64,000 bases of DNA from an archaeon. Lineage in GTDB: Archaea > EX4484-52 > WAPT01. Shown here one piece after another: positions 35,121 to 63,477 of this stretch; the stretch's first letter is position 1; each line of letters begins with the position of its first letter. The position numbers were made by a program, and so were the translations under genes. The notes under the pieces are model-generated. The model saw only the letters and a list, made by a program, of their open reading frames with translations. It was not told the DNA's origin and did no database searches. The DNA is taken from contig JAPDKB010000002.1 in NCBI GenBank assembly GCA_029258795.1, positions 50,822 to 114,821 on the forward strand, given 5' to 3'.

Positions 35121-35215
35121 GATAGAAGGAATGCAATTTATGAGGTTTATATATTTTCAGAAGATTTAAAACTGTTTGCCACATATCTATATTTCTGTCT
35201 TGGATGATTTGTCGT

Positions 35216-35365
35216 GGGCCGGTGGTCTAGCCTGGAAGGACGTCGCCTTGGCATCACACAGCTTTCACGGCTGTGTGCCAGTATGGCGGAGGCCCCGGGT
35301 TCAAAATGGCTGCTTACGCCGTTTTAAGAATCGGGCAAGCTTTCATGAAAATCCCGGCCGGTCCA
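35216..35365 (+). tRNA. tRNA-Ala (anticodon GGC) with a canonical anticodon-loop intron and a second intron in the T-loop
   Basis: Acceptor GGGCCGG/CCGGTCC gives the G3:U70 alanine identity pair; D-arm GTCT-AGCCTGGAA-GGAC; anticodon stem TCGCC...GGCGG with ~30-nt insert after TTGGCA containing a 9-bp hairpin; T-stem CCGGG...CCCGG split by ~45 nt; CCA encoded. Confidence 0.75.
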
Positions 35366-35403
35366 CCACATATAAATTTTTTTCTCTCCATCTTTAACTC
35401 TCA

Positions 35404-37182: not shown

Positions 37183-38480
37183 TGGTTATGCACGAGCTTG
37201 TTATCGAGGGCAGGTTTGTAACACTTGATGGTGTGAAATCCGGTTACATCGGGATTGATGGTGACAGGATTTCTGAGGTATCGCTTAGCGCTATAAAAGG
37301 AAAGAACAAAAAGAGGTTTGCGCAGGAGTGCCTCATTTTTCCGGGATTTATCGATATTCATGTTCACCTCCGTGAGGATGAGAGCCGGAAGTGGGTGCAT
37401 AAGGAAGATTTTAAGACAGGGAGTTTAGCAGCCATTAACGGAGGCGTGACCCGTGTTGTTGACATGCCAAACACACCAGCCACAGGCACCACAAGAGAAA
37501 GGATTGAGAACAAGATTGAGCGTGCAAGAAAAGCCAAAATTCCGGTGCAGTTTTATGGCGGTATTGCAACAAACAATCTGGAAGACCTTGAAAAAATGAA
37601 AGATGTTGTGATCGGTTACAAGGGCTTTCTTTGCCAGAGCACGGGTGATATGACCATAAACTATGAGATTCTGGAAAGGGCCATCCAGAAGATCAGAGAT
37701 GCTGGTTTGCCATTAACTCTCCACTGCGAGGAGCAGAGCATGGTTGATGAACTACAGAAAAAATACGCGAACTCCAGTTTGGGTGTGCTTGCTCATCCAG
37801 AAATAAGGGCTCCAGAGACAGAGTATGTTTGCGTGGAGAAGGTGTTGAAGCTTGCGGAAAAATATGATGGTATGCATTTCAACATAGCTCACGTTTCCAC
37901 GCCGGAAGCAATGGAGATGGTTGAGAAAGCTAGGGAAAGGGGGCTTAAAGTTACGTGCGAGGTTACACCTCACCACCTCTTTTTCAGCAAGAGCGCGATG
38001 AAGAAGAAAGGAGCGTATCTCAAAATGAACCCTCCTTTAAGAGACGAGGAAAGGAGGAGGAAGCTTCTGAACATGGTTAAGGAGGGCAAAGCTGATTTTG
38101 TGGCAAGTGACCATGCACCCCACACCATAGAGGAGAAGGAAAGCGAAAATCCTCCGAGTGGGGTTCCGCAGCTTGATACCTACGGTATTTTTGCAGGGTG
38201 GCTGATCAGGGAGGAAAAACTCGACCCAGCCTTGATATTGAAAATGTGTTCCTACAACCCTGCAAGATTCCTCGGGCTTGAGGATGAGGGCAAAATAGAG
38301 GCAGGATGTAGAGCAAACCTGACCGTGCTTGACACGAAGCACAGTATTAAGGTGGAGAATGATATGGTTAAGAGCAAATGCGGATGGACACCATTCGATG
38401 GCTTAACATTTCCATCATGCGTCGCTGCTGTAATGTTGAATGGTGAGGTTCTTGCGGAATATCACGAGCTCTTCATGTGA
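37182..38480 (+). CDS. pyrC: Dihydroorotase (cyclic amidohydrolase)
   Basis: Metal-binding GFIDIHVHLRED, later HCEE and VASDHAPH; immediately follows the pyrK-pyrD fusion; start overlaps upstream stop. Confidence 0.75.
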   Translation: MVMHELVIEGRFVTLDGVKSGYIGIDGDRISEVSLSAIKGKNKKRFAQECLIFPGFIDIHVHLREDESRKWVHKEDFKTGSLAAINGGVTRVVDMPNTPATGTTRERIENKIERARKAKIPVQFYGGIATNNLEDLEKMKDVVIGYKGFLCQSTGDMTINYEILERAIQKIRDAGLPLTLHCEEQSMVDELQKKYANSSLGVLAHPEIRAPETEYVCVEKVLKLAEKYDGMHFNIAHVSTPEAMEMVEKARERGLKVTCEVTPHHLFFSKSAMKKKGAYLKMNPPLRDEERRRKLLNMVKEGKADFVASDHAPHTIEEKESENPPSGVPQLDTYGIFAGWLIREEKLDPALILKMCSYNPARFLGLEDEGKIEAGCRANLTVLDTKHSIKVENDMVKSKCGWTPFDGLTFPSCVAAVMLNGEVLAEYHELFM

Positions 38481-38593
38481 ACGACTTCTGCCGATTGTTT
38501 TGAAAAAAACGGTATAAGGGACGAAAACCTTTATATAATTCCGCATGCCTAAATAAACATAGCTAATCTTAAAACGGTTGAGGGGTGAATTAG

Positions 38594-38890
38594 ATGGCGA
38601 AGAAGGGAAAGAAGAGGTACTTTGTTTTGCTGGATGACAAGGGCAATGAAATCGGTGTCTTTACCGGAAGGCAGCCAAGACAGGCAGCTCTTAAGGCTGC
38701 TACAAGGGGTTACACCAAAATCAGATTGAGAGAGAGGGGAACAAACAAGATCCACATCTATCAGGGTAGTAGGAAGAAGGTGCCTGCTCCAGCCAACGCA
38801 CCAGAATGGATGGGTAAGGAAGTGTGGAAGCCAGTGGTTAAGAAGGTAGGAATCGAGAAGATCGAGAAGAAAAGGAAAAAGAAGAAGTAA
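38594..38890 (+). CDS. Chromosomal protein MC1
   Basis: 98 aa; RYFVLLDDKGNEIGVFTGRQPRQAALKAATRGYTKIRLRERGTNKIHIY closely matches MC1 as recalled from Methanosarcina. Confidence 0.75.
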   Translation: MAKKGKKRYFVLLDDKGNEIGVFTGRQPRQAALKAATRGYTKIRLRERGTNKIHIYQGSRKKVPAPANAPEWMGKEVWKPVVKKVGIEKIEKKRKKKK

Positions 38891-38936
38891 ATTTATTCAG
38901 GCGCTGACAACATAAGATGGTCAGCGCCCCTCTTTT

Positions 38937-40163
38937 CTATTTTTTCCATGCCACAAGTGTTGTTTGCCTTTCTTTAAGTTTGTTGAGGAGCTTGCTTATG
39001 CTTTTGAGATGGAGATTGCACTTCATTTCATTTTCAACGATTTTGATGGCTTGTTCCACACTTTCCATGATTCGTGGTTTCGTTCTCATCGCTTCCCTCA
39101 CAGTTTCCCTGACCACCCACACACCCAAAGGAGCCCAGTAGTCCGGCAGGATTTCCCTCACAATCAGCACACTCGCCTGCCTTTTTATCTTTGCAAGATG
39201 TTCCAGCACGGCAAGACGGGAAGCGTAGTAACCACCAGCGGTCTCATCCACATACTTTTTGCGGGAGGTGAAGTCCTCGTAATCCTTTGTGATGTAATAC
39301 CTCTTTCCAAATTTCTTCCACTCGCCAATCGGGTGGGCTATTTCCACCAGCTCGAATTTCCATGTGGAGGGAAAAAGCAGAACCCAGAATCGATTGCCGT
39401 TGTACTCAGCATAGTGAATCATCACGGAATCCACCACATCATATTGCCTTATCTCATTGATGAAGTGCTTCCCCAGCATGTCATCCACAGCCGTTATGCT
39501 CCACCTCGTGGGAACGAGCTTCCTCTGCTTTTTCACGCCCAGCATGCCAACAGAAAGCACCCTTGAGAGTACGTTTTCATCCACACCTCTCACATAAAGT
39601 TCAACTAAGGCATCGGTTGCTTTCAGGTCGGAATCGTAATATGCTTTCTCCACCCTTCTGTCAACTTTAGGATTTTCCGCGAGCACCATTCTTTTCAATT
39701 TACCCCTCAACCCCACAGGAGAAAAAACGTAGGAAAAGTTAACCTCTATGGATGGTTTTTTCATGAACTCCACTTCTGTTAGCACGCTTCTCCTTGCCAT
39801 CGCAATTTCGTGCACCATCTCCACAAGTTTGGAAGGGGTTTTAACACTTGTTTTGAAAGCGGGATTTATCATGCTCAACCTCTTGGCAAGTACTGAGGCG
39901 ACATCCAGCTTCTGCGTGAACCAGAGGCGTGGAGCATCATAGTATTCAGGAGAGTTATCCTTAACGCCCAGCGCACCAACATTAACAGCAGGATACCCGA
40001 ATCTCCCCACAAAGACAGAAGGAGGGGTGTAGAGCTCATCCCTCTCCTTTATTTGAGTTGCCCTCTCCTTCAGCTTCAGCGCTTCCACGAAGTAGCACGG
40101 CTTTCCGCAGAGGTTTTTACCCTTGCATTTAACACAGAGCGCGGGGTCTATTATCTTGCCCAT
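38937..40163 (-). CDS. Nre-family (NreA-like) protein, putative DNA repair
   Basis: 408 aa; N-terminal Cys motif CVKCKGKNLCGKPC; overall size and pattern recalled for archaeal Nre proteins; not verified. Confidence 0.5.
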   Translation of the reverse strand: MGKIIDPALCVKCKGKNLCGKPCYFVEALKLKERATQIKERDELYTPPSVFVGRFGYPAVNVGALGVKDNSPEYYDAPRLWFTQKLDVASVLAKRLSMINPAFKTSVKTPSKLVEMVHEIAMARRSVLTEVEFMKKPSIEVNFSYVFSPVGLRGKLKRMVLAENPKVDRRVEKAYYDSDLKATDALVELYVRGVDENVLSRVLSVGMLGVKKQRKLVPTRWSITAVDDMLGKHFINEIRQYDVVDSVMIHYAEYNGNRFWVLLFPSTWKFELVEIAHPIGEWKKFGKRYYITKDYEDFTSRKKYVDETAGGYYASRLAVLEHLAKIKRQASVLIVREILPDYWAPLGVWVVRETVREAMRTKPRIMESVEQAIKIVENEMKCNLHLKSISKLLNKLKERQTTLVAWKK

Positions 40164-40255
40164 AGGGAAATGTAGGGCGCGCAGTTTTTAATTAGTAAAA
40201 CCAAAACTAGGACATATCCAAAAATATTTAATAGTGTTATCCCAATTCATCTCCT

Positions 40256-40537
40256 GCGGCAGGGCTAGGCCGGGGAGCTAGCCCCTCCCTGTAACCGCAA
40301 ACGGGCTAACGGCGGGGCCGAAAACCGGGGGGCGGGCGATTGGCGGCTCGCTGGGCAGCTTGCTGCTGAACAATGACTCTCTGCCCCCGAAGGCCGCTGT
40401 ACCGGTGAACCGGGTCAGGCCCGGAAGGGAGCAGCCCTAAGCCGGTACTTCGGTGCTTCGGGATCAGCGGAGAGGAGGTAGGCAGCATCTCTGCCCGCGA
40501 GCTTAGCCGCGCTCCACCCCCGGGAAGCCCTGCCGCG
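40256..40537 (+). ncRNA. Signal recognition particle RNA (7S/SRP RNA)
   Basis: Helix-8 core GGUGAACCGGGUCAGGCCCGGAAGGGAGCAGCCCUAAGCC; 5' GCGGCAGGGCUAGGCCGGGG pairs with 3' CCCCGGGAAGCCCUGCCGC; GC-rich ~280 nt; TATA-like AAAATATTTAA about 30 nt upstream. Confidence 0.75.
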
Positions 40538-40564
40538 TAATTTTGCAAAAGGGTGTGGAGTTGC

Positions 40565-41368
40565 ATGAAGCGCGAGAAAAGGAGTATGACCGCAAGAAGG
40601 GTGGAGATGGTTGTTTTTATTTTGCTTGTGTTCGCTTTCTCACTTGGTCTTATGATGGGAAGCGCAGGTTATCTTGCAGAACTCATGATTAAAAGTGGTT
40701 TGGAGCAGCAAAAAGAGGTTAAGAGTGTGGAGGAGCTGACGGGGAGCAGAGCTTTTGAGGGTAACAACACCGCAAGCGTGACTATACCTGCTGTTATGGC
40801 AAACGATACGGGAGTTTACGCAACTCTCGTTGTAAGGGCCGTGCCTGGAACCGGAAAGATTTTCGTGCAGATGAACAACTTGCTTGTGAATGATGACACG
40901 CAGCAGTCCATAAGGAAAGCGGCACTGGTGGCTTCAAAGCTCGCGGATGTCAATCTAAGCACCGTTGATCTTTATTACGAGATTAACGCCCCAGCCACCG
41001 AGCTTGAAGGAGGGAGTGGAGGAGCAACAATCGCTGTTGCGACTTATGCAGCACTTACCGGCAAGAAGCTTCGAGACGATGTGATGATGACCGGGAGCAT
41101 AAATCACGATGGCACGGTGAGCATAGCGAGCAAGGTGATAGAAAAGGCAAAGGTTGCAGAGAGTTTGGGGATGAAGTACTTTCTCGTGCCCAAAGGCATG
41201 AAAATGCTTTACGATTACAAGCCCACAACTTTTTGCTATGAGTGGCAAGATGGTGTGGAGTTCTGCGATACAGAATACGAGCGCGTCAAAACAGAGCTTT
41301 GGAACTTGAGCGTTGAAGTCGTGGAGGTAAGCACGCTTCGGGAAGCTCTGAAGTATTTTTTGGAGTGA
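40565..41368 (+). CDS. Membrane-anchored Lon-like (S16 family) protease domain protein without AAA+ module
   Basis: N-terminal TM helix; C-terminal EGGSGGATIAVATYAALTGKKLRDDVMMTGSINHDGTVSIASKVIEKAKVAESLGMKYFLVP resembles the Lon proteolytic domain. Confidence 0.6.
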   Translation: MKREKRSMTARRVEMVVFILLVFAFSLGLMMGSAGYLAELMIKSGLEQQKEVKSVEELTGSRAFEGNNTASVTIPAVMANDTGVYATLVVRAVPGTGKIFVQMNNLLVNDDTQQSIRKAALVASKLADVNLSTVDLYYEINAPATELEGGSGGATIAVATYAALTGKKLRDDVMMTGSINHDGTVSIASKVIEKAKVAESLGMKYFLVPKGMKMLYDYKPTTFCYEWQDGVEFCDTEYERVKTELWNLSVEVVEVSTLREALKYFLE

Positions 41369-41457
41369 TAAGTTTTTGCAAGAAATTGCCAATATTATGC
41401 AAAAACTGTGAAATCGAAAACTCAGAACTTTAAACATTCTTGAGATCCATGAATTGG

Positions 41458-41588
41458 CGCCGCGGGCCGGATTTTCACTTCTCAAAGAGCAGGTTTCCTC
41501 TTTTATTCCCAGCTCCGCTTCGAACCGGCGCGCCCTTGCGGGCAGTGGCTCTCGAGGCCACCGCACTACCTGGCTATGCGACCGCGGC
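41458..41588 (-). tRNA. tRNA-Ser (anticodon CGA, tentative) with T-loop intron
   Basis: Reverse complement: acceptor GCCGCGG/CCGCGGC+G+CCA; anticodon arm GTGGC-CTCGAGA-GCCAC; long variable arm TGCCCGCAAGGGCGC; T-stem GCCGG...CCGGC split by ~48 nt. Confidence 0.6.
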
Positions 41589-41641
41589 GCGAAGAATACC
41601 ACTACTCAATTAACATACTATTGGGTGGAGCTTTAAAATCT

Positions 41642-42115
41642 TTACTCCTTGATCTTCTTCTCAAACTCCAGAATCTGGTGTTTGAGCCTCACAAGCACAT
41701 CGGTGGTTTTGCTGAGCGATTCCTTCAACTTCTCCTTTTCTTTCTCAAGCTCTTTTATCTCTTCCTCTAAGGTTGCTTTTTCAGCGGTAAGCTTTGCGAC
41801 TTCATCCTTCAAACTCTTCAGTTCTATCTCCATCTGTTCCTTTTCCTTTGTTAGCTTGCTGACCTTCTGGCTCAGCTCTTTTCTCGTATGCTCAAGCTCT
41901 TCAACCTCAAGCTTCAGCTGTTGCTCTTCCGTGGTAAGTTCCTTCAACTTGTTTTCAAGCCGCTTTTTCTCTTCCTTTATCTTTATTGCTTCTTCTATGC
42001 TTTTTTCAAGCACATCCAGAATGTTCGCGAGCTCTTTCTCATACTCCCCAGACATCTGCGCTTCTTGTTTCTTGGAACCTCCGTTTCCCATTAGCTCACC
42101 TCCATCTGAAAACAC
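41642..42115 (-). CDS. Coiled-coil protein (hypothetical)
   Basis: 157 aa, heptad-rich E/K/L sequence (KRLENKLKELTTEEQQLKLEVEELE...). Confidence 0.45.
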   Translation of the reverse strand: MFSDGGELMGNGGSKKQEAQMSGEYEKELANILDVLEKSIEEAIKIKEEKKRLENKLKELTTEEQQLKLEVEELEHTRKELSQKVSKLTKEKEQMEIELKSLKDEVAKLTAEKATLEEEIKELEKEKEKLKESLSKTTDVLVRLKHQILEFEKKIKE

Positions 42116-42206
42116 TGCCTGAGAATTAAGTATTGTTCACCCCTATAAATAATTTTCGAAAAAATACTCAAAAAATATAATAGGGTGTTTCACCACAAAA
42201 CAACTC

Positions 42207-43193
42207 ATGGAAATTCAGTACACTTACGAGAACCTGAACTGGATAATACTGACAGCAGGGATCATAATCATTCTACACCTTCTCGTGCTGAAAAAAAGCA
42301 GGGAGCGCGTGATTCTCTTTGCAAATTACGAAACGCTCAGAAAGGTTACTGGAGGTGAGCTAATACATCGCAATCTTGTGCCTCTTACCCTAAGAGTTCT
42401 GGCAGTTATATGTCTTTTGCTCGCGATTTCCAACCTAAAGATTATCGTGATAAAGCCGGTTTCCGATGTGGACTTCGTCATTACAATAGATACTTCCCCC
42501 ACCATGCTCAGCTCTGATGGAGGCAATTTCACCCCCAGCAGGTTGGAAGTGGCTAAAATGGCTGCCGAGCAGGTTGTGGATGTGCTGCCCGAAACCACCA
42601 AGGTGGGTGTAGTAACATTTGCGGGCAAAGCCAAATTGAAACTTCAACTCACCAACAATAAAGAAGTCATAAAGAAAACGCTTGATTCCATCTCTCTTGA
42701 GGGGCCTGCGGGCACAGCCATTGGTGATGCAGTAATTGTGGCCTCAATGCTCCTCTCCAACTCAACCAAGGACAAAAAGGTTGTGGTGCTGATCACAGAC
42801 GGTAAATCGAATAAGGGCGTATCTATCAACGAATCCGCAAAGTTCGCCCTTGACCATGGTGTGCGCGTCAACGCTATAGGTGTGGGAAAAAAGAACGTCA
42901 CTGTGCCCTTCAACATTACAGAGCTGAATTTGACCGAGCTAATCAACGAAAATGCCACCATTTATATGGGAGAGGCGCTGGATGAACAAGCCCTGCAGTA
43001 CCTTGCAAACATGACGGGAGGCAAGTACTTCTACGTTCAGAACAGCACGCAGATGCTGGAAGCTTTCAAGGAATCCGTGCTGAAAGCCAATGCCGTTGAG
43101 CTGAATGTGAGAAAGTGGGCCATAATTATTGGCGTCATACTTCTCATTCTCGAATGGGCGCTTGGCGCAACCAAATACAAAACTTTACCCTGA
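42207..43193 (+). CDS. von Willebrand factor A (vWA) domain membrane protein (BatA-like)
   Basis: N-terminal TM helices; MIDAS-like DTSPTMLSSDG, later TAIGDAV and VLITDGKSN. Confidence 0.65.
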   Translation: MEIQYTYENLNWIILTAGIIIILHLLVLKKSRERVILFANYETLRKVTGGELIHRNLVPLTLRVLAVICLLLAISNLKIIVIKPVSDVDFVITIDTSPTMLSSDGGNFTPSRLEVAKMAAEQVVDVLPETTKVGVVTFAGKAKLKLQLTNNKEVIKKTLDSISLEGPAGTAIGDAVIVASMLLSNSTKDKKVVVLITDGKSNKGVSINESAKFALDHGVRVNAIGVGKKNVTVPFNITELNLTELINENATIYMGEALDEQALQYLANMTGGKYFYVQNSTQMLEAFKESVLKANAVELNVRKWAIIIGVILLILEWALGATKYKTLP

Positions 43194-43197
43194 AAAA

Positions 43198-44193
43198 CTA
43201 TAACCCCCTTCCTGCAGCCCACACATCCAGCCAGTGTATAATCGGCTTGACGAAGGGCTCGTCCGTTATGTATTTCAGGAGATGTACTCCCGCCCTGTGA
43301 AATCCTTTCTCTACCATCTTCATTTGCTTTAAGGCCTCTCTCTTGTATTCTTCAGCATACTTATCCAGATCCACCTCCATGACTTTACCTGTCAGCGGAT
43401 CTTTTAATCTATAATAACCAGTACCCTTGGGAAGCTCGATGTCGCGTCGGTCACGCACCATTATGCCCAGAACACCCTCAAATTTGGATGACGCCATCCT
43501 TAACTTATCCTCCCAATCCCCCTGCAAACCGATAAAATCGGAGATGATGAAGAGCATGGTTTCCCTTCTGAGGATCTTCACAGCGAAATCCAGAGCTGAA
43601 GAGAAGTCCTTTTTTCCTTTCCAGTTTCTTCTGTCGAGCATGGCTGAAAGGATGCGGTAATAGTGTGCGCTCTCTTTTAACGGAGGTACAAATCTATTTA
43701 TCTTATCAGAAAACATGATGATCCCGGCATTATCTCCATTCTCAAGCGTGGCGTAGGTAATGGCGCCAGCTATAAGCGTTGCGTACTCACTTTTCAGCCG
43801 TTTAGCGGTGCCAAAAAGCATGGTGGGGGAGGCATCAACCATTACAACTACATCAAGATCACGTTCCTGTTCAAAAACCTTAACGTAAAGCTTTGTAATT
43901 GTGCCACCAGCGTTGACCCTCAGAGTCGATTTCCAGTCGATAAGGGAAGCGTCATCACCTTCCTCATACTGCCTGAGTCCGTAGAACTCAAGACCCTTGC
44001 CCCTGAAAACCACCTTGTACTTCAAAACCAGCCTGAAAATGTCCGCAAGTTTCTTGACTTCAACATCTATTTCCTTAACAAGCTTCTTGACTTCCTCAGG
44101 AACTTCACGCCTTCTTTTTGCTTTTTCCAGCTCTCTTTCCAACTTTTTCTTGTGCGCTTTTCTGTTAACAAGCTTCTTTATTTTTGGGCTCAT
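43198..44193 (-). CDS. DUF58-family protein (vWA-like fold)
   Basis: 331 aa; SLIDWKSTLRV and VVVMVDASPTMLFG motifs characteristic of DUF58. Confidence 0.6.
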   Translation of the reverse strand: MSPKIKKLVNRKAHKKKLERELEKAKRRREVPEEVKKLVKEIDVEVKKLADIFRLVLKYKVVFRGKGLEFYGLRQYEEGDDASLIDWKSTLRVNAGGTITKLYVKVFEQERDLDVVVMVDASPTMLFGTAKRLKSEYATLIAGAITYATLENGDNAGIIMFSDKINRFVPPLKESAHYYRILSAMLDRRNWKGKKDFSSALDFAVKILRRETMLFIISDFIGLQGDWEDKLRMASSKFEGVLGIMVRDRRDIELPKGTGYYRLKDPLTGKVMEVDLDKYAEEYKREALKQMKMVEKGFHRAGVHLLKYITDEPFVKPIIHWLDVWAAGRGL

Positions 44194-44319
44194 GCAAGAT
44201 GATTTGGTTAAGCTTCCCTAAAAAAGTTTCTCTAATTTTGTGGCTCTGAGATTAAGTATCATAACTTCGTTCACCGAAAAATATATATAGAATGTTAATC
44301 CAATTTTAAAGTAATTCGG

Positions 44320-44946
44320 TTGGGTGAGATGAAAATGCCATCTCGTAGAGCAATTAAAGATGAAGAATACGAAATACCCTATGATGATTATGAAGTAATG
44401 CCTATAAATCCGTTGCGCAGACTTGAGAAAAGGTTGGAAGCTCTGGAGGAGTCAAGAACACTCTCCAATCTCGAAAGATTTATAGACAAGATAATCGATA
44501 TGACTGAGCTAAATCAAAAGATTGTTGAGGAGGTTGTAAGGTCTAATCAGGGTTTGAGAGAAGAGATTGAAGTGCTTGTGGGCAAGCTGGATAAGCTTGA
44601 GGAAAAAATAGAGCAGTTCGTGGACATTTTGAAAATGCTTGGTGAGGAGGAAGCCAGAAGTGGTGGAGAGGAAGTCATGATGAAGATTGCAGAGAAATTT
44701 GATGATATCGCCAACAAAATAGCGGAGAGTAACACAAACGTTCTGCAGGCTTTGACATCCATCGATAAGCGTCTGAAGAAGCTCGCGAGTGAAGGGTCAC
44801 ACATCCACGCAATGCACAAGCCGTCCGCACCACCCGCATCTCCGGCACCACACGGAATGGGGTCGGGAATGCCGCCCACTCCATCAGAATTTGGAGCACC
44901 CCAACCAACCTCTCCAGGTCCTACTCCTCCACTCAAAAGAATATGA
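44320..44946 (+). CDS. Coiled-coil protein with proline-rich C-terminus (hypothetical)
   Basis: 208 aa; coiled-coil core and PSAPPASPAPHGMGSGMPPTPSEFGAPQPTSPGPTPP tail. Confidence 0.45.
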   Translation: MGEMKMPSRRAIKDEEYEIPYDDYEVMPINPLRRLEKRLEALEESRTLSNLERFIDKIIDMTELNQKIVEEVVRSNQGLREEIEVLVGKLDKLEEKIEQFVDILKMLGEEEARSGGEEVMMKIAEKFDDIANKIAESNTNVLQALTSIDKRLKKLASEGSHIHAMHKPSAPPASPAPHGMGSGMPPTPSEFGAPQPTSPGPTPPLKRI

Positions 44947-44952
44947 TAAGGG

Positions 44953-45165
44953 GTGATGATGATGGATAAGCAGACGAAAAAAATAATAGAATCGATTGAA
45001 TATTTCGTGCTTCTGCTGGCTCTGGCCATGATAGGTGTGCTGATGGGTATGATGAGTGTTGTGCAGAATCAGCAGGATATGCTCGTGATAATTTCGATGA
45101 TGAATGTGATGGGAATACTGCTTGCGGACATGTTGCTGTTCAAGATTTACAGAGAGAAGAAATGA
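44953..45165 (+). CDS. Small membrane protein (hypothetical)
   Basis: 70 aa with two hydrophobic helices, between the coiled-coil gene and the pilin genes. Confidence 0.3.
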   Translation: MMMMDKQTKKIIESIEYFVLLLALAMIGVLMGMMSVVQNQQDMLVIISMMNVMGILLADMLLFKIYREKK

Positions 45166-45184
45166 TAATTGAGAGGTGGATTAA

Positions 45185-45646
45185 ATGATGAGGAAAGGTC
45201 TGACGCCTATCATAGCGATGGTTTTGCTTTTAATGCTGGCTATAGCCGCAGGAGGTATGCTTTTTGTTTTTGCACAAAAGATGCAGTCGAGTTTACAGGA
45301 AAATGTCCAAAAAGAAATGTTGTCTGAAGCAGAGAGGCAGGCGATGAGGGTTGCTATAGTTAGTGTCTACAAGACAAGTGAGGGTAAAATTGGTGTGGCT
45401 GTAAGAAATATAGGAAGGAAAGATATTCCTACAGATTACATAAGTCTTTATCTAAATGGACAACCCGTATCCGATGTTACCTTCAATTGCGACGGCACAA
45501 TTCAAGTTTTTAAAACCTGTGGATTGAAATTAGACAACATGGACTTTCCGGGAGATGGTGAGCGGTTTACTATCAGAGTGGATGCTCCCGGGAACACTGA
45601 TACTAAAGTATGTAAATCAGAGGGCGGGATGTGCGTTCCTCCATAA
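45185..45646 (+). CDS. Archaeal type IV pilin-like protein (class III signal peptide)
   Basis: MMRKGLTPIIAMVLLLMLAIAAGG: RKG followed by hydrophobic helix is the prepilin-peptidase substrate pattern. Confidence 0.6.
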   Translation: MMRKGLTPIIAMVLLLMLAIAAGGMLFVFAQKMQSSLQENVQKEMLSEAERQAMRVAIVSVYKTSEGKIGVAVRNIGRKDIPTDYISLYLNGQPVSDVTFNCDGTIQVFKTCGLKLDNMDFPGDGERFTIRVDAPGNTDTKVCKSEGGMCVPP

Positions 45647-45658
45647 ACCTTTTATTTT

Positions 45659-46315
45659 GTGGTGTTGAGTATGAGGCCGAAAGCTCAGGTTCAGGCAGTT
45701 TCCTATGTATTGGTGTTGGGAATAATCTTAGCCACGGTATCAGCAACCTATTTTTGGGGGTTACCCCTTCTTCAGAAAGGAGAGGCGACAAGCAAGCTCG
45801 AATCTGCAAAAAATACAGCAATGGAAATAGCAGACACTCTTAATGATGTTGCTACAACTGGCTCTCAGAAAACCCTGACCTTTAATCTTTACGGGATGGT
45901 TAAAATAGATCCAAACGATAATTCCATTTATTACATTATCAGGTCTCAAAAAAGCCCCTATGCCCTGAATGTGTGGATTCCGCTGGGTAGTGATGAACCA
46001 CATGGTGTGAAAGGTACGGAATGGGAAAATTCAACCGCGGTTTTGGGTCAGGATCCACCAGCAACTGTTCTTGTCAGGGCTGAAAGGTATGGTTCAGAAT
46101 ATGTTATTCTCTACAGGATCGCATTTAGAGAACTTTACGATTTGGATAGTGGGGAGAGTTATTATTATAATCTAACAGCAGGAGGTAATACTCAGGTGAC
46201 GGCAGGAAGGGCCACATTAACTCTTACTAAAGGAGAACCAACAAGAAGTGGAAGCAACAGTTTAGGCGGCAAAAGGATAAATGTACCGATCTATGCAGGA
46301 GTGAATTCTGGATAG
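45659..46315 (+). CDS. Pilin-like protein
   Basis: N-terminus MRPKAQVQAVSYVLVLGIILATV fits a class III signal peptide (K-A then Q and hydrophobic stretch). Confidence 0.45.
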   Translation: MVLSMRPKAQVQAVSYVLVLGIILATVSATYFWGLPLLQKGEATSKLESAKNTAMEIADTLNDVATTGSQKTLTFNLYGMVKIDPNDNSIYYIIRSQKSPYALNVWIPLGSDEPHGVKGTEWENSTAVLGQDPPATVLVRAERYGSEYVILYRIAFRELYDLDSGESYYYNLTAGGNTQVTAGRATLTLTKGEPTRSGSNSLGGKRINVPIYAGVNSG

Positions 46316-46332
46316 TTTTTTTTAGTTTTAAG

Positions 46333-46767
46333 TTGGTGAGTGAATTGAAAAGAAAGGGTCAGACTTTAACCCTAGAACAGGTGCTCGTTTTCAGTATAGG
46401 TATTACTATGATTATATCTCTTTTAATTTTAGTTTCCAATATTTATCAGCAGTTGGGGAGAGAAGCCGATGCCGTAATGGGAGAAACAACGCTCATGTAC
46501 ATTTACGCTGCAGCAAGCCAGCTGGATAAAGAATCATTGCAGAATTACATAAAGATTCCACTTCCAACAACTTCCACATTTAGAGATTACCGAATAACAG
46601 GGATGGGAGAACTAGGTATAGGAATAGAATTACCCACCTATTCCATCGGTCTGCATTTATCGCTTCATGGAATTAAGGGCTTTTACGGAGCGGTTGAGAG
46701 TGATGATAAATATGCTGTGATTTCGACTGGTGGGGGTTCTCAATTTGTGGGGATCTCCCCACCATAG
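46333..46767 (+). CDS. Pilin-like protein
   Basis: N-terminus LKRKGQTLTLEQVLVFSIGITMIISLLILV (KG-Q class III signal pattern). Confidence 0.45.
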   Translation: MVSELKRKGQTLTLEQVLVFSIGITMIISLLILVSNIYQQLGREADAVMGETTLMYIYAAASQLDKESLQNYIKIPLPTTSTFRDYRITGMGELGIGIELPTYSIGLHLSLHGIKGFYGAVESDDKYAVISTGGGSQFVGISPP

Positions 46768-46769
46768 TT

Positions 46770-47444
46770 CTATTTAACAATGGAAAGAAGGTCTTCTATG
46801 TCATCGATAATATAGTCGGGCTCAACCTTTCCTTCAAACTTCATCCCCCCATATTTTGCAAAACAGGTTTTCATCCCAACGGCTTTAGCTCCGGCTATGT
46901 CCACTTCTTCTCTGTCCCCGACATAAAGCGATTCTTCTGGATTTACTCCTGCAATTTTTAAACCAAGCATGAATGGTTCCGGAGAAGGTTTTCTCTTTCC
47001 AGTGTCATCCAGCGTGACCACTATCTTGAAAAAGTGATGTAACTTGAGAGTGCACAATCTTATCCATGCTTTGAGGCGCGGAGCATCCGTTATTATACCC
47101 AGCTTGACTCCACGCCTCATTAGCTCAAGTAATGTGGGTATCACGTGTGGATATGGCTCAAGAAAGCTAACCCTTCTTTGTCTGTATGCAACGATGGCAG
47201 CAGCCAGAATTTTTGGATCGGGCGTGTCCATCACTTCCTTAAGGAAATCATCGAAGATGTGTTTGTACTCCATGCCGTGCTTATCATAAAGTTTGTAGAG
47301 GAGTTCCATCGCCTTATCCCTCTCTATTTTCAGCCCTGCATCCACCATCGCTTCCACACTTCCCTCGAGACACATTCTCTTGAATCGCATGAAATCCACA
47401 AGCGTGTTGTCCAGATCGAAAAACACCGCCTTGATTCGAGTCAT
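46770..47444 (-). CDS. HAD-superfamily hydrolase
   Basis: Motif I VFFDLDNTLVDF at N-terminus; later GIITDAP and YVGD motifs. Confidence 0.75.
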   Translation of the reverse strand: MTRIKAVFFDLDNTLVDFMRFKRMCLEGSVEAMVDAGLKIERDKAMELLYKLYDKHGMEYKHIFDDFLKEVMDTPDPKILAAAIVAYRQRRVSFLEPYPHVIPTLLELMRRGVKLGIITDAPRLKAWIRLCTLKLHHFFKIVVTLDDTGKRKPSPEPFMLGLKIAGVNPEESLYVGDREEVDIAGAKAVGMKTCFAKYGGMKFEGKVEPDYIIDDIEDLLSIVK

Positions 47445-47501
47445 AAATTTTTAAGAGTGAACAACATTCTTAAAATTATAATAACTACAGAAAGATAGAG
47501 G

Positions 47502-48077
47502 GTGGATAATGTGGGTCTGCCGTCGGTCATAAAGGTTAAGGGATACAGGTTGGTGAGGAACGACAGTTATGACGAGCCTCTTTACTCTGTAGTTTTGGAA
47601 GCCAGAGCCAAGTCGCTGTCTTCAGCTATAACTAGGTGTATAAGTAAAGCAAAATCAATCGAGGAGATGATACAAGACAGCTACGGCCTTATATACTATG
47701 GATTTGAGGTGCTAACTCAAGTTAAGGATGAGAATTGCTGGCATGCGGTGGTTAGAGCGGACTACATCCCTGATGAATCAATAAATGACGAAAGTGAGGA
47801 GTACGATTACAAGGAATTGTATGATGGGAGGGACGATCTCAGCGTCAAGAAAACCAAGATTGATGTGCGTGGCCAGGCAGATATAGTCGAATCGATGATT
47901 CTTCTCAACATAATCGATGAGCTGGAAATGATATTGATGAGGCCACCACTCATCAGAGATGTTACGCAGGTGGCTAGGGATTTAGGTATCAGGAATGCCG
48001 CATCTAAACTCATTAATTTATCCAAGAAAGGATTGGTAAGTATAAAAAAAGGGAGAGTGTCCAGAGAGAATTTGTAA
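47502..48077 (+). CDS. Hypothetical protein with possible C-terminal HTH
   Basis: 191-aa ORF; acidic central region; C-terminal VTQVARDLGIRNAASKLINLSKKGLV. Confidence 0.4.
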   Translation: MDNVGLPSVIKVKGYRLVRNDSYDEPLYSVVLEARAKSLSSAITRCISKAKSIEEMIQDSYGLIYYGFEVLTQVKDENCWHAVVRADYIPDESINDESEEYDYKELYDGRDDLSVKKTKIDVRGQADIVESMILLNIIDELEMILMRPPLIRDVTQVARDLGIRNAASKLINLSKKGLVSIKKGRVSRENL

Positions 48078-48084
48078 GTTGAGA

Positions 48085-48489
48085 TTATTGTTGCTTCTTC
48101 TTTTTTTCGTACTCCTCAATAAGCTTCTGTAACCCTTCAACAGCCATTTTTGTGCAGTGGACCTTTACTGGAGGCAATCCACCGAGCTCCTTAACCAGCG
48201 ATTCGTACGAGAGTTTCTTCGCTTCTTCAATCGTTTTTCCCTTTGCAAGCTCCGCCAGTATGTCGCTGCTTGCTATGGCTGCAGCACATCCAAATGTTTT
48301 GAATTTGATGTCTTCAATTATCTCCTTATCTCCCTCTTTCCTGACTTTCATTGTGAAGCTCATCACATCTCCACACACAGGATTTCCAACTGTCACTTTG
48401 GCATCTGCATCCTCAATTTCTCCTGTATTTCTGGGATTGCGGAAGTGTTCTATGAGCTTCTCAGTGTAAACATCACTCAATATTATCAC
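48085..48489 (-). CDS. iscU: Fe-S cluster assembly scaffold protein IscU/NifU-like
   Basis: 134 aa; NPVCGDVM and FGCAAAIASSD motifs with conserved Cys. Confidence 0.8.
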   Translation of the reverse strand: MIILSDVYTEKLIEHFRNPRNTGEIEDADAKVTVGNPVCGDVMSFTMKVRKEGDKEIIEDIKFKTFGCAAAIASSDILAELAKGKTIEEAKKLSYESLVKELGGLPPVKVHCTKMAVEGLQKLIEEYEKKKKQQ

Positions 48490-48502
48490 CCCTCTTTATG
48501 TT

Positions 48503-49705
48503 TCACCCTTTCCATAGCGGCGAGATTTCACGCAACTTATTAACGACTTCCGGAAAGACCTCGAGGAAATAATCCACATCCTCATCCGTGTTGAATCTTC
48601 CGGCACTTATTCTGATTGAGCCATGCGCTATCTCCGGCCTCAACCCTATCGCTATGAGGACGTGGGACGGCACGAGCTTGGTGGAAGAGCAAGCGGAGCC
48701 AGTGGATACCTCTATTCCGTACTCATCAAGCATCATGACCGTGCTCTCCCCTTCCACCCCCTCTATTGAAAAGTTAACGTTTCCCGGCAATCTTTTGTTG
48801 AGGTCAGAAGGACCATTGAGATAAACCTTTTCCAATCTGCTTGTAATACCTTCTATTATCCTCTTCTGAAGTCTTCTCAACTTTTCCTTGTCCTTGCTCA
48901 CTTCCTCCATAACAAGCTCTGCGGCCTTCCCCATACCGACTATACCCGCAACGTTCTCCGTTCCTGACCTCCTGCCCTTTTCCTGTCCACCTCCATGCAA
49001 GAGAGGGTCGATTTTCACACCGTTCCTGATGTACAAAGCGCCTATTCCTTTCGGAGCGTAGAATTTGTGCCCGCTTATCGTCATCAAATCCACGCCCAGC
49101 TCTTCAACATCCACCTCCGTCTTACCAATTGCCTGACACGCATCCGTATGGAAGTACGCGTCGCTTTTTTCCTTTACAATCTGGCACGCTTCCTTCACGG
49201 GTTCAAGCGTACCTATCTCATTATTGGCAAGCATTATGGAAACGAGAATTGTATCCTTCCTAAGCGCGTTCTCCAGCTCTTCCAAGTTTATGAACCCTTC
49301 CTTATCCACCTTAAGATACGTGATGTCAAATCCCTGCTTCTCAAGCCACTTGCATGTGTTGAGTATGCATTTGTGCTCTATTGGTGTGGCGATTATGTGC
49401 TTTCCTTTATCCTTATTGGCAAAAGCAACCCCTTTCAATGCCCAGTTGTTGCTTTCAGTACCGCCGCTGGTAAAGTAAACACCACCATCCTTACAGTTTA
49501 TCATCTTCTCCACCTTTTCCCTGGCATCCTCAACAGCTTCTCTGGCTTCCCTTCCCTTTCTGTGAACATTGTTTGGATTACCCCATTTTTCCTTTAGAAA
49601 GGGCAACATAGCATCCAAAACTCTCGGATCAACGGGTGTGGTTGAGTTATTGTCCAGATAAACATATCTGTTCATGGTGAGTTCACCTATAACACTGTTA
49701 TACAA
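48503..49705 (-). CDS. iscS: Cysteine desulfurase IscS/NifS
   Basis: PLP-dependent class V aminotransferase pattern (SGGTESNN, PLP lysine context SGHKFYAPKGIGALY, active-site SACSS); likely start at internal MNRYVYLD. Confidence 0.8.
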   Translation of the reverse strand: MYNSVIGELTMNRYVYLDNNSTTPVDPRVLDAMLPFLKEKWGNPNNVHRKGREAREAVEDAREKVEKMINCKDGGVYFTSGGTESNNWALKGVAFANKDKGKHIIATPIEHKCILNTCKWLEKQGFDITYLKVDKEGFINLEELENALRKDTILVSIMLANNEIGTLEPVKEACQIVKEKSDAYFHTDACQAIGKTEVDVEELGVDLMTISGHKFYAPKGIGALYIRNGVKIDPLLHGGGQEKGRRSGTENVAGIVGMGKAAELVMEEVSKDKEKLRRLQKRIIEGITSRLEKVYLNGPSDLNKRLPGNVNFSIEGVEGESTVMMLDEYGIEVSTGSACSSTKLVPSHVLIAIGLRPEIAHGSIRISAGRFNTDEDVDYFLEVFPEVVNKLREISPLWKG

Positions 49706-49740
49706 AAAGCTTATATCGTAAAAATTTATAAATGTGTGTA

Positions 49741-51300
49741 TCAGAGAAACGCGCTCACATCCTCCTGCTTTTTCTTCTTTTCCTCAACCCATTTTCTGAC
49801 CGCATCTTCCAGCGTGTCCTCAAACAAACTTGCACTGCATTTCCTCTTCCTGATTTTAACGAACACAGGGACATTCACAGCTTCTCCAACCATCACCGCT
49901 TCTCCCGGCTGGAGGGAGGTTATGAGTTCAAGCGCTTCTCTCGTGAGACCTTCCGAACTCTCCTTTATATGATTGAGGTCGTTCGGGTTTGTTATTCTCA
50001 TTATGATGTGTGTGTTGCACTGTGCAAGTGCTGTCTGTGAGAGATAGTAGGGGCGCTGAGACACGAGGCATAGACATGCATAAAACTTCCTTCCCTCCCT
50101 TGCCAGCGTTTCTATGGGCTCCTTTGCCAGCGCTTCATATTTGCTGGCTATAGAAGGGACAAAATTATGTGCTTCCTCCACCACCAGCAGGAACGGAGGA
50201 ACGACACCAGTTACTCTCATCCTGAAAAGCTGCTGTGTGAGGAGCCGCACAATCAGCAGCTTCTTTCTCACGTTTTCCGTATCGCTCAGATCTATCACGT
50301 AGAGATGTGCATGCATTATATCCCTCAGGTTTGGATACGCAACTTTTGAAAACAGGTTTAAGGAAGCAAGAGCGTTCATTATTTCTTCCCCCACTTCTCG
50401 CTCCTTCTTCTCCAACCCCATGGAATCAAGATTTGCAAGCACGTCTTCCACATCATAACTGCCGTGTTCTTTGAAAAACTCTCTTACTTTTGAAATGAAG
50501 GAGGATGCTGCCCTTCTTTTTTTGTCTTTTAAGTCAGGAAAAAGCAGTTTTATGAGCTCGACATCCACCACGTCAGTAAGGGAAAATGACACCTCCCTAC
50601 CTTTAATTACTGTTGTCATTCTAGCATAATTTGCATCTTCCGCATAGACAGTGTATTCTCCGTGGGGGTCCACAACCACCACAGCCGGAACATATCCTCC
50701 GTTTTTAGCGATGTCGAACAATTCTTCTATGATCACACTTACCGTGTGGCTTTTACCAGCTCCAGACATCGCAAGAATCGCAAGGTGTTTCCGAAGCAGT
50801 TTTGTCGGATCAACCACCAGGTCTACCTCAGGCTGGAAAAGGAACTTACCGAGCTTAATCCCCGATTCAGCCGTACCTGTCAGCTTTTTCACATGGTTTG
50901 GTGGAGATGGCACCACTTTATCTCCAGGTATGGGTGGAGAAAAACACTTGACGAGATAAAAATCACCATCTCCTTCTTTTATTTCCCCGATAATTCTGGC
51001 ATTAGCATATACGGATTGCCATCTCTGCAGATAGGAGCTGCTGCTTGAACTCTCATCAAGCATGTCCGTCATAACAACTTTATCTTCCATATAGGGGTTA
51101 TATGCAACTATATCTTCAACAACTGCAACGATTCTATGCCCACGAGAGGTAAGGACCTCCACATACTGATTCTTTCTCACTGTATTCATTTCATCTTCAT
51201 TCTCCTTTATCACGAAAGTAAGGTTTGTGGTGGATGGAGACTTTTCGGCTGACACCACATATCCTATGACTTGATCATCTTGTAACTCTTTCCCTTTCAT
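49741..51300 (-). CDS. HerA-like (FtsK/HerA superfamily, DUF87) ATPase
   Basis: 519 aa; Walker A LAILAMSGAGKSHTV; Walker B VVEEAHNF; no NurA-like nuclease gene adjacent. Confidence 0.65.
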   Translation of the reverse strand: MKGKELQDDQVIGYVVSAEKSPSTTNLTFVIKENEDEMNTVRKNQYVEVLTSRGHRIVAVVEDIVAYNPYMEDKVVMTDMLDESSSSSSYLQRWQSVYANARIIGEIKEGDGDFYLVKCFSPPIPGDKVVPSPPNHVKKLTGTAESGIKLGKFLFQPEVDLVVDPTKLLRKHLAILAMSGAGKSHTVSVIIEELFDIAKNGGYVPAVVVVDPHGEYTVYAEDANYARMTTVIKGREVSFSLTDVVDVELIKLLFPDLKDKKRRAASSFISKVREFFKEHGSYDVEDVLANLDSMGLEKKEREVGEEIMNALASLNLFSKVAYPNLRDIMHAHLYVIDLSDTENVRKKLLIVRLLTQQLFRMRVTGVVPPFLLVVEEAHNFVPSIASKYEALAKEPIETLAREGRKFYACLCLVSQRPYYLSQTALAQCNTHIIMRITNPNDLNHIKESSEGLTREALELITSLQPGEAVMVGEAVNVPVFVKIRKRKCSASLFEDTLEDAVRKWVEEKKKKQEDVSAFL

Positions 51301-51425
51301 AAAGAGAGATGTTGCACGTCAAAATTTTTAAACAGAATATACCCTCTCGACATATTTGCAGTCGCAACTTTTATATATGGGCAAATCCATAAACATCAGT
51401 AAGCTAAGCCCAAAGAGGTGAGTGA

Positions 51426-51854
51426 ATGATGGCAAGGAAAGGTATATCTCCATTGATAGCGGTAGTGTTGCTCGTGGTCTTTACAGTGGGTATTAGTGTA
51501 GTGATATCCAGCTGGCTGAGCAGCTATGCCAAGCAAACCACAGAACAGGCAGGACAGGGCACACAGCAGGCCATAGAGTGTGCAAAAGCTGTGGTTGACA
51601 TAACCGATGCAACGAACAACGGCGTGTTTGTGGCAAATGTGGGTGCTACAGACATAACGGTTACGAGATTATACCTCTACGACGATAACAACAATATCTG
51701 TTCGCAGGATGTGAATCAGAACCTCCAGATAGGAGAAGAAGTGTACATCAACTATAACTTCACAGGATGTCCTGCAGGCTTTAACAGCGCAGCACTAACA
51801 AAGGTCAGAGCAGTGACGAACTGCCCAGGAGTAACAGATGAATACACTTACTAA
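51426..51854 (+). CDS. Archaeal type IV pilin-like protein
   Basis: MMARKGISPLIAVVLLVVFTVGISVVI class III signal peptide. Confidence 0.6.
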   Translation: MMARKGISPLIAVVLLVVFTVGISVVISSWLSSYAKQTTEQAGQGTQQAIECAKAVVDITDATNNGVFVANVGATDITVTRLYLYDDNNNICSQDVNQNLQIGEEVYINYNFTGCPAGFNSAALTKVRAVTNCPGVTDEYTY

Positions 51855-51984
51855 CCGACAAAAATTAGAAAGCAAGATTTTTCCTCTTTTCTTCTTTTTC
51901 ATTTATTTTGTGGAGCATCCCATACGGAGTTTCAAAAACTTTAAATACCTTATTGCAATTATAAGAAATATCATCTTCTGCAGA

Positions 51985-52105
51985 CCCGCCGTAGCTTAGT
52001 CTGGTAGAGCGCTCGGCTGTAGGTCTGTGCCGCGTGGTATGGCGCAGCCACGCAGCCAGTTGCTCAGAAACCGAGAGGTCCCCGGTTCGAATCCGGGCGG
52101 CGGGA
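51985..52105 (+). tRNA. tRNA-Tyr (anticodon GTA) with canonical anticodon-loop intron (~47 nt)
   Basis: Acceptor CCCGCCG/CGGCGGG+A+CCA; D-arm GCTT-AGTCTGGTA-GAGC; anticodon stem CTCGG...CCGAG with CTGTAG then intron; intact T-arm CCCGG-TTCGAAT-CCGGG. Confidence 0.75.
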
Positions 52106-52432
52106 CCAAATTGAAAATGCTAGATTTTTCATAACAAACATGTATTCAAAATCCAATCGGTAATTTTTTATAAGTAAAAATGAACGGATATGAAAGGGGA
52201 TTTGAACACTTCTGACTGTTCAAGAAATATTCTGAAAAAGATTAGAAATATTTCCACCTTATCTATGAGACCACAAAACTTATTAAGCACTTTTTGACGA
52301 ATTATGAGAAAAGCTAGTTATTTAGAAGTGAATAACTCATTTTGTAAAGGACTCCCCACAAAAGAAATTAGAAACACAGAGGGAAAATTAAACATTTTTT
52401 ACAAATGGTCTATTAAGTAATGAATGAGGAAA

Positions 52433-53863: not shown

Positions 53864-54090
53864 AATAGTTTGTTTTTCGTTCGTTTAAATTAATTATAAT
53901 TATCACGGAAATTATCGACCTGTTCTCTGAAATTCAATTTATGGGATAAATGATATTAATTGAATCTAGATTTTTGGAGATGACAAAATAAAATAAATTC
54001 GTAACGATTAAATCCAAGAGGAGAGGATAAGAGTGCTGGCATTATGATATAATTACCAGAAGTAGGTTTAGAAGCGCCTTCTCATTTTCA

Positions 54091-63471: not shown

Positions 63472-63477
63472 CGCACA

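Follow-up and report, generated by a model that had tools for sequence, protein, structure and literature searches.

The region described here, positions 41642 to 46767 of a 64-kb stretch of archaeal DNA (hereafter the window, which is all the sequence examined for this organism), contains eight genes (Table 1). They encode, in order, a coiled-coil protein (cc1), a BatA-type membrane protein carrying a von Willebrand factor A domain (the vWA protein), a DUF58 protein, a second coiled-coil protein (cc2), a small membrane protein (tm70) and three pilin-like proteins (pil1 to pil3). A first, sequence-only reading had listed the vWA membrane protein, the DUF58 protein, both coiled-coil proteins and the three consecutive pilin-like genes, all of which we confirmed at these positions; it had overlooked tm70, a gene for 70 amino acids (aa) with two transmembrane (TM) helices. 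In all eight genes the proportion of nonsynonymous differences from the orthologues (pN) is far below that of synonymous ones (pS), so all eight are real genes under purifying selection. Their layout amounts to at least four transcription units, namely cc1 (-), vWA (+), DUF58 (-) and cc2-tm70-pil1-pil2-pil3 (+), and only the last five genes, with gaps of 6-19 bp, look co-transcribed. A 91-bp A/T-rich spacer, in which TATA-like boxes are seen, separates the divergent cc1 and vWA genes; the vWA and DUF58 genes converge, only 4 bp lying between their stop codons; and DUF58 and cc2 are divergent, their starts being separated by a 127-bp spacer that holds an A/T-rich TATA-like box about 40 bp 5' of cc2.

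The sequence-only reading had joined these genes into one vWA/pilin module of unusual composition, lacking the AAA+ ATPase MoxR. This did not stand up to comparison with related loci. Indeed, we consider it probable that the region is the junction of two independent gene sets which form no functional unit: block A (cc1, vWA and DUF58), a remnant of a MoxR-DUF58-vWA module, and block B (cc2, tm70 and pil1 to pil3), an accessory pilin operon. The comparison set consisted of 80 loci from species-representative genomes, collected by a profile search for the DUF58 family, and of loci obtained by exact look-up, giving 88 counted loci across which MoxR, DUF58 and vWA genes were labelled by phmmer. 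Relatives are designated by the identity of their DUF58 to that of the window: 84% (L090), 74% (L088, L089, L091 and L092) and 62% (L003 and L004), the best match in the species-representative genomes being 51% identical. The window, which contains a signal recognition particle RNA of the archaeal type, belongs to a tiny symbiotic archaeon of the DPANN group (Nanobdellati). The metagenome-assembled genomes (MAGs) that hold the close homologues of its DUF58 bear, without exception, the labels Aenigmatarchaeota, Nanohalarchaeota, Altiarchaeota, Woesearchaeota or just "archaeon".

Two loci show the blocks apart. The 74% relative L091 is collinear with positions 34717-44133 of the window, which comprise the left block only (KaiC-like ATPase, PyrK-PyrD, dihydroorotase, MC1, Nre, signal recognition particle RNA, Lon_C protease, tRNA, cc1, vWA and DUF58), with one additional MFS gene within it; the similarity ends at DUF58, and the remaining 0.5-1 kb or so up to the contig end is non-coding and includes a transposase remnant. 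L099, which holds the sole non-trivial pil2 homologue in a word-indexed search, is collinear with positions 44358-56226, the right block only. It starts at cc2 (64% identity) and continues with tm70 (47%), two tandem copies of pil1 (46-49%, with an N-terminal helix identical to that of the window pil1), pil2 (67%) and pil3 (52%), then a HAD hydrolase, IscU, IscS, HerA, a stand-alone pilin, a tRNA and a CARDB surface protein; to the left of its cc2 lie Alba, carbonic anhydrase and integrase genes, and neither DUF58 nor vWA. In the 62% relative L003, a multi-TM protein of 328 aa, unrelated to these genes, is encoded beside DUF58. Across the 80 loci, pilin-like open reading frames (ORFs) are not enriched near the DUF58 module (0.050 per kb within 3 kb versus 0.043 per kb beyond), and no secretion ATPase (T2SSE) or platform (T2SSF) gene occurs within 10 kb of MoxR-DUF58-vWA in any of them (0/80; 1.09 Mb searched).

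In relatives, mobile elements have left traces on both sides of the junction. A 235-bp segment derived from an insertion sequence (IS) is shared, at 71% identity, by the far end of the region upstream of DUF58 in L092 and by the sequence just left of cc2 in L099, which identifies the DUF58-cc2 junction as a rearrangement point. IS remnants, consisting of helix-turn-helix (HTH) and DDE fragments with stop codons, lie at positions 1-560 of L092, 3514-3740 of L099 and 1-511 of L091; the L092 stretch was assigned (HTH and DDE) from its translation by eye and gave no significant tblastx match to the IS copies of the window itself. Five independent assemblies break at most 1 kb upstream of DUF58. 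The non-coding sequence found there in L090 and L088 gave no Rfam match.

Table 1. Genes of the region and pilus-related genes elsewhere in the window
Feature	Position	Strand	Description
cc1	41642-42115	-	157-aa soluble coiled-coil protein; SMC/ATG16-type matches, all below cut-offs
vWA	42207-43193	+	328 aa, BatA-type membrane protein; PF00092, PF13519 and PF07584 above cut-offs
DUF58	43198-44193	-	331 aa, soluble, vWA-like; PF01882 E=2e-47, 161.7 bits
cc2	44320-44946	+	~203-208-aa soluble coiled-coil protein with Pro-rich tail; weak coiled-coil matches
tm70	44953-45165	+	70 aa, two TM helices; between cc2 and pil1
pil1	45185-45646	+	PilA-type archaeal type IV pilin-like; TIGR02537
pil2	45659-46315	+	214-218-aa pilin-like, Q at +1; PF23960 DUF7289
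pil3	46333-46767	+	140-144-aa pilin-like; passes the class III rule, no family match above threshold
Stand-alone PilA-type pilin	51426-51854	+	TIGR02537 24.7 bits (cut-off 20); passes the class III rule
Pilin-like gene MRKG/QAATEYL…	61003-61467	-	Passes the class III rule; last gene of the machinery locus, directly downstream of two T2SSF genes
Platform genes (TadC/PilC-like, T2SSF)	61562-62611 and 62608-63471	-	PF00482 E=1e-15 and 2e-17; phmmer matches with L003 T2SSF
T2SSE/PilB-type ATPase, C-terminal part	63478-64000	-	Cut by the window end; phmmer E=1.2e-21 against L003 T2SSE; weak PF23989 PilB3_C

In block B, the N-termini were judged by a FlaFind-like rule for class III signal peptides, which demands a short basic N-terminus, a [KR][GA] motif for cleavage and a hydrophobic helix, some 20 residues long and free of charges. 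All three pilin-like proteins pass it (a slash marks the cleavage position): pil1 with MMRKG/LTPIIAMVLLLMLAIAAGG (RKG/LTPIIA…), pil2 with MRPKA/QVQAVSYVLVLGIILATVSA (PKA/QVQAVSYVLVLG…; Q at +1) and pil3 with LKRKG/QTLTLEQVLVFSIGITMIISLL (RKG/QTLTLEQVLVFSIG…). The motif is conserved in the L099 orthologues, and the earlier suggestion of a surface structure holds for the pilin block, which is a surface-structure gene set. Family assignments differ between the three. The archaellin/type IV pilin N-terminal domain TIGR02537 matches pil1 at 21.9 bits (cut-off 20), next to weak sub-threshold matches to UpsA, ArlF, ArlG and BasA that are driven by the N-terminal helix. For pil2, the match is to PF23960 (DUF7289, a family of unknown function; 34.2 bits, cut-off 27); the word-indexed search returned 2 clusters only, and an exhaustive HMMER search was required to reveal a family of at least 259 representative clusters (E<=1e-3), among the best 150 of which 124 show an N-terminal [KR][GAS]Q followed by a hydrophobic helix. 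Its AF2 model (pLDDT 74) has an N-terminal helix of about 60 residues (8-67) and then a beta domain, and structural searches with this model gave no significant match. No family matched pil3 above threshold; its L099 orthologue matches DUF7266 weakly (E=0.008). A PF19917 bpX1 match of the L099 pil2 orthologue (19.8 bits, cut-off 27) was discarded as noise; it covers the N-terminal helix and is absent from the window pil2. The tm70 gene is also called in L001.

Block B has no ATPase, platform or peptidase gene of its own. As Makarova et al. concluded that archaeal secretion ATPases serve different pilin sets (PMC4858521), the three dissimilar pilin-like proteins are probably best read as a set of accessory or minor pilins. 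The cc2 and tm70 proteins would be accessories peculiar to the lineage, one in the cytoplasm and one in the membrane. A different use of the same genes can be imagined, in which pil1 to pil3 build no filament and instead form a short pseudopilus or class III surface proteins anchored in the membrane, comparable to the components of the Sulfolobus bindosome or to the ArlF/ArlG stator proteins, with cc2 and tm70 as their cytoplasmic and membrane base. The three proteins are indeed unlike in size and sequence, none is an obvious major pilin, the block brings its own coiled-coil and small membrane proteins, and pil1 weakly matches ArlF, ArlG and BasA besides UpsA. However, these matches are all sub-threshold and due to the N-terminal helix, the pil2 model shows the classical long helix followed by a beta domain, and filament machinery with its own pilin is encoded 14 kb away; we therefore regard a non-filament role as unlikely.

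This machinery occupies positions 61003-64000 (-) and has the layout of a type IV filament system 1, with a secretion ATPase, two platform genes and a pilin (Table 1). Two platform genes mark the archaeal type IV filament (TFF) system 1, which is found in DPANN and comes with diverse or stand-alone pilins (bioRxiv 10.64898/2026.04.22.720090; PMC4858521). The stand-alone pilin of the window adjoins a HerA-like DUF87 ATPase (49741-51300) and is 56% identical to its L099 orthologue. Between it and the machinery locus, we also observed a CARDB/DUF11 surface protein (54091-55551, -) and a 737-aa transglutaminase-like protein (57698-59911, -). Transglutaminase-family peptidases have been linked to clade 1 archaeal pilus loci (PMC4858521).

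Block A has to be read against the distribution of MoxR. In 71 of the 88 DPANN loci, MoxR adjoins the DUF58 orthologue, usually in the order MoxR-DUF58-vWA on one strand, and many of the remaining loci are contigs that end at DUF58. The nearest relatives that retain MoxR (L008-L010, about 51% identity) already have an inverted vWA gene, like the window, and all the 84%, 74% and 62% relatives have the convergent pair with no MoxR adjoining. Within the window, MoxR was searched by a Walker-A scan including the AKT variant, by Pfam scans of the P-loop candidates, by phmmer with three MoxR queries against the ORFs and by tblastn with four MoxRs of the lineage. The scan yielded only KaiC, RFC, a kinase, HerA, XPD and MinD-like proteins, no MoxR came out of the Pfam scans, phmmer gave no match and the best tblastn hit had E=0.07. 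The lack of MoxR noted earlier for the cluster is thus correct and extends 41 kb upstream and 17 kb downstream. None of the best 120 MoxR homologues is placed on the contig of the window, and for this reason a MoxR just outside the window is probably not to be expected.

MoxR genes of the relatives were located by a search with the L008 MoxR followed by look-ups. In two of them, a homologue exists elsewhere in the genome. The 62% DUF58/vWA pair of GCA_054040935.1 is found on contig …011.1, whereas its stand-alone MoxR (P0135) is on JBPKYA010000004.1; in GCA_054011715.1, the 74% pair is on contig …012.1 and the MoxR (P0156) on JBPMXQ010000002.1, neither MoxR gene having DUF58 or vWA beside it. 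Since two relatives with the same MoxR-less pair keep a stand-alone MoxR on another contig, MoxR appears to have been relocated, not lost, in the lineage of the window, and by extension from these relatives in its own genome. A third MoxR (P0155) is 80% identical to P0156 and 77% to P0135; the window DUF58 is 74% and 62% identical to those of GCA_054011715.1 and GCA_054040935.1, respectively, a topology congruent with that of P0155. On these sequence identities, P0155 is a plausible, as yet unattributed candidate for the MoxR that belongs to the genome of the window or to that of a species very close to it.

Alternatively, the genome might have lost MoxR, the DUF58/vWA pair working without an AAA+ partner or with another ATPase. 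The 64 kb indeed contain neither a MoxR nor a remnant of one, no listed homologue falls on the contig, and both DUF58 and vWA are still under purifying selection. We nevertheless find such a MoxR-independent pair very unlikely, because both relatives with examinable assemblies keep a conserved stand-alone MoxR, because P0155, a MoxR with the expected phylogenetic position, is present in public data, and because DPANN MAGs are incomplete, so that its absence from one contig says little.

Several variants of the MoxR neighbourhood were recorded in passing. In L093 (3356-9880; GCA_054040935.1), the relocated MoxR is found 1.3 kb upstream of the gene for an orphan T2SSE ATPase, and its distance to a gene for a pilin-like protein, 32% identical to the pilin at 51426 of the window, is 2.2 kb; in a small genome, this may be chance. 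Two tandem MoxR paralogues precede DUF58-vWA in many Altiarchaeota/Aenigmatarchaeota loci (L005, L021, L022, L027, L029-L031, L033-L040, L042 and L043), and far longer MoxR ORFs, of up to about 920 aa, occur in L020, L045 and L086. Two genes for coiled-coil proteins, one of 104 aa and one Lys-rich of 484 aa, are located divergently upstream of MoxR in L008 (674-2507, -); they have no detectable similarity to cc1 or cc2, and small coiled-coil genes may be recurrent neighbours of the MoxR/DUF58/vWA module.

The proteins of block A retain the characters of this module. DUF58 has 179 DPANN homologues; the window protein preserves all 27 invariant columns of a DUF58 alignment (A1) and shows a dN/dS of about 0.07 against L090. 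The vWA protein matches PF00092 (VWA) at 65 bits and the BatA N-terminal domain PF07584 at 27.2 bits (cut-off 25.9), with PF13519 also above its cut-off; NF047508 (BatA) matches with E=1.4e-23, yet below its cut-off. Its domain bears a motif of the metal ion-dependent adhesion site (MIDAS) type, DxSxT…T…D, read from the sequence as DTSPT…GTAIG…ITDG. A Bat-like module is therefore represented by DUF58 (PF01882) and by a membrane vWA protein with the BatA N-terminal domain and MIDAS motif; two further features, an adjacent MoxR heading the operon and a co-directional gene order, are missing, and the neighbouring genes include no second BatA/BatB-type vWA protein and no tetratricopeptide repeat (TPR) family. 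Despite the two missing features, the vWA/DUF58 pair clearly descends from a MoxR-DUF58-vWA module. TM segments were found neither in DUF58 nor in cc1, the orthologue of which (73-74% identity) occupies the same position in L088 and L091 and is absent from the 62% relative L003.

Three hydrophobic segments organise the vWA protein, in the order acidic N-terminus, TM1, basic loop (KKSRER…RK), TM2, vWA domain, C-terminal TM3 and short basic tail. According to the positive-inside rule, applied to the basic loop and tail, the vWA domain would be outside the cell. All nine N-X-S/T sequons (9/9) are found between TM2 and TM3, that is in the vWA domain, and DUF58, cc1 and cc2 contain none. The enrichment is family-wide: the ratio of observed to expected sequons is 1.95 for vWA (77 BatA-type vWA ORFs from L003-L087 and the window), 0.60 for DUF58 and 1.00 for MoxR. 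Taken together, the charges, the confinement of the sequons and their enrichment in the family suggest that the BatA-type vWA domain of DPANN, with its MIDAS motif, is probably outward-facing and N-glycosylated, in keeping with the surface location proposed at first.

Two other ideas about block A were discarded. At 40553-41368 (+), we observed a membrane-anchored protein made of a Lon C-terminal (S16) protease domain alone, without the ATPase domain, which adjoins the tRNA and cc1 in the 74% relative; a link to this Lon_C-only protease was rejected, as it adjoins cc1 in the 74% relative and not in the 62% relative. A defence system was dismissed as well, PADLOC matches being coiled-coil noise for cc1 and cc2 and zero for the other six proteins.

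If the vWA domain is displayed outside, the eight genes could be a composite adhesion module, in which it would serve as adhesin or anchor alongside pil1 to pil3, with DUF58, cc1 and cc2 as cytoplasmic accessories and MoxR unneeded, by analogy with TadG or with the PilY1/minor-pilin tip complex of bacteria. The physical adjacency, with 127 bp between the divergent starts of DUF58 and cc2, and the predicted extracellular vWA domain agree with this; moreover, it has been proposed that vWA proteins with MoxR/GvpN ATPases modulate the type IV pili of archaea (PMC4858521), and in the 62% relative DUF58 and the relocated MoxR are each near pilus genes. However, the adjacency is absent from L099, from L003 and from all 80 more distant loci, the genes are spread over four transcription units, the vWA/DUF58 family is otherwise tied to MoxR rather than to pilins, and the literature ties another vWA family to pili, the cytoplasmic ArnB-like arCOG02900. 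This makes a composite module highly improbable. Its boldest form, in which a BatA-type protein freed from its MoxR operon now works, through its outward-facing, glycosylated MIDAS-type domain, with accessory pilins as a host-attachment device, an archaeal counterpart of the bacterial PilY1/minor-pilin tip complex, draws on the two blocks being neighbours in one lineage and on a single relative, the 62% one, where DUF58 and MoxR are loosely close to pilus genes (a proximity that, were the idea true, would reflect the same emerging association); we hardly believe in it.

Some observations do weigh against a simple junction of unrelated blocks. The contigs of L090, L091 and L092 end 0.4-1 kb upstream of DUF58, before any cc2 could show, so the DUF58-cc2 adjacency might be common to the nearest species. 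The 62% relative L003 has a pilus machinery locus of the same arrangement 3 kb from its DUF58, the relocated MoxR of the 62% relative lies 1.3 kb from an orphan T2SSE, and there may be a loose lineage-specific tie of DUF58/MoxR to pilus genes. In addition, the MoxR attributed to the window genome would be known through its relatives and through P0155, a candidate that cannot be attributed, and no Peptidase_A24 or other prepilin peptidase is present among the scanned window ORFs.

With these points considered, two independent blocks remain the reading that we favour. At this locus, block A would be the remainder of a three-gene module, MoxR-DUF58-vWA, found almost universally in DPANN wherever this DUF58 family occurs. 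In the lineage of the window, the operon would have been dismantled, with vWA inverted so as to converge with DUF58 and MoxR moved elsewhere in the genome. The cytoplasmic MoxR, an AAA+ chaperone, and the soluble DUF58, its predicted adaptor, would still act in trans on the membrane vWA protein, probably through the conserved basic cytoplasmic BatA loop between TM1 and TM2, at about residues 28-57, and the MIDAS-type vWA domain would be displayed, N-glycosylated, on the outer face of the membrane. As for block B, it would be one operon for three pilin-like proteins with class III signals, a cytoplasmic coiled-coil protein and a tiny membrane protein. Because none of its genes codes for an ATPase, a platform protein or a peptidase, the products of the block would most likely be processed by the prepilin peptidase of the genome and then assembled, or used as minor or priming subunits, by type IV filament machinery encoded elsewhere, for example by the system-1-like locus at 61-64 kb. 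The adjacency of the two blocks would result from rearrangement at a junction that bears IS remnants in the relatives.

This removes a candidate "new surface module" and illustrates that adjacency in small, rearranged DPANN genomes can mislead. The MoxR-DUF58-BatA trio itself is very widely conserved in DPANN, and its extracellular-looking, putatively glycosylated vWA domain bears on the way in which episymbionts shape their cell surface. The trio also tolerates being split across the genome, which argues for action in trans and for co-translation not being needed.

Outside the two blocks, we noted a probable tRNA-Ser(CGA) at 41455-41590 (-), with an encoded CCA and a T-loop interrupted by a non-canonical intron, that was missed by ARAGORN and by the Rfam gathering threshold (16.7 bits). 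In the 74% relatives its exons show 96-99% identity; the intron measures about 45 nt in the window and about 24 nt in L088, L091 and L093, and a tRNA-Ser(GGA) of L093 has an intron at the same position. Two more Rfam tRNA matches, one of 121 nt at 51985-52105 (+), presumably intron-containing, and a partial one of 56 nt at 55918-55973 (-), 98% identical in L099, were not reported by ARAGORN; tRNA genes that are unusual or split seem to abound in this genome. A pair of transposases, IS6/IS240 DDE (7006-7800) and IS1595 (7827-8726, both -), lies in a stretch at 6-12 kb with 33-36% GC, versus 43-49% elsewhere, alongside S-layer-like small proteins; this stretch may be an acquired island.

Finally, the two blocks can be compared with known systems. 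The bacterial proteins PilY1 and TadG, with an extracellular vWA domain near minor-pilin genes, offer a functional analogy only: they have no sequence relationship to the window vWA protein, which is of the three-TM BatA type and is not a pilin-like or tip protein. The thaumarchaeal pairs of an ArnB-like vWA protein and a GvpN/MoxR ATPase at type IV pilus loci (PMC4858521) also place a vWA protein beside archaeal pilus genes; however, their vWA protein is the cytoplasmic arCOG02900, they include the ATPase, and they stay linked to the pilus genes across genomes, whereas the linkage seen in the window is not conserved. Closer are the bacterial Bat or MoxR-DUF58-vWA operons (Bacteroides fragilis; Riemerella anatipestifer, PMC11834572), which affect stress tolerance, envelope and virulence (PMC11834572) and which share with the window a DUF58 protein and a BatA-type membrane vWA protein with a MIDAS-like motif; the window differs by the lack of MoxR in 64 kb, by its convergent genes, by the lack of BatB-E/TPR proteins, by its archaeal host and by a vWA domain predicted to be extracellular and glycosylated. 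The nearest counterparts of block A are the DPANN MoxR-DUF58-vWA loci (Altiarchaeales L005; Aenigmatarchaeota L007 and L053), which have an orthologous DUF58 (36-52% identity) and a BatA-type, sequon-rich vWA protein; there, one or two MoxR genes lie directly upstream and are co-directional, whereas in the lineage of the window MoxR is at another locus. Block B differs from the archaeal type IV filament system 1 (Epd-like) and stand-alone pilin sets (PMC4858521; bioRxiv 10.64898/2026.04.22.720090) in its coiled-coil and 70-aa two-TM pair, which is outside the described components, in a pil2 annotated as DUF7289 only, and in that the scanned ORFs of the window include no dedicated peptidase. 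It shares with them the class III signals, two of which have Q at +1, an operon of several pilins that are unlike one another and accompanied by no ATPase or platform gene, and a machinery locus with two platform genes elsewhere. The juxtaposition of the two blocks is thus real but ordinary, and the pilin block fits the known archaeal stand-alone pilin sets.

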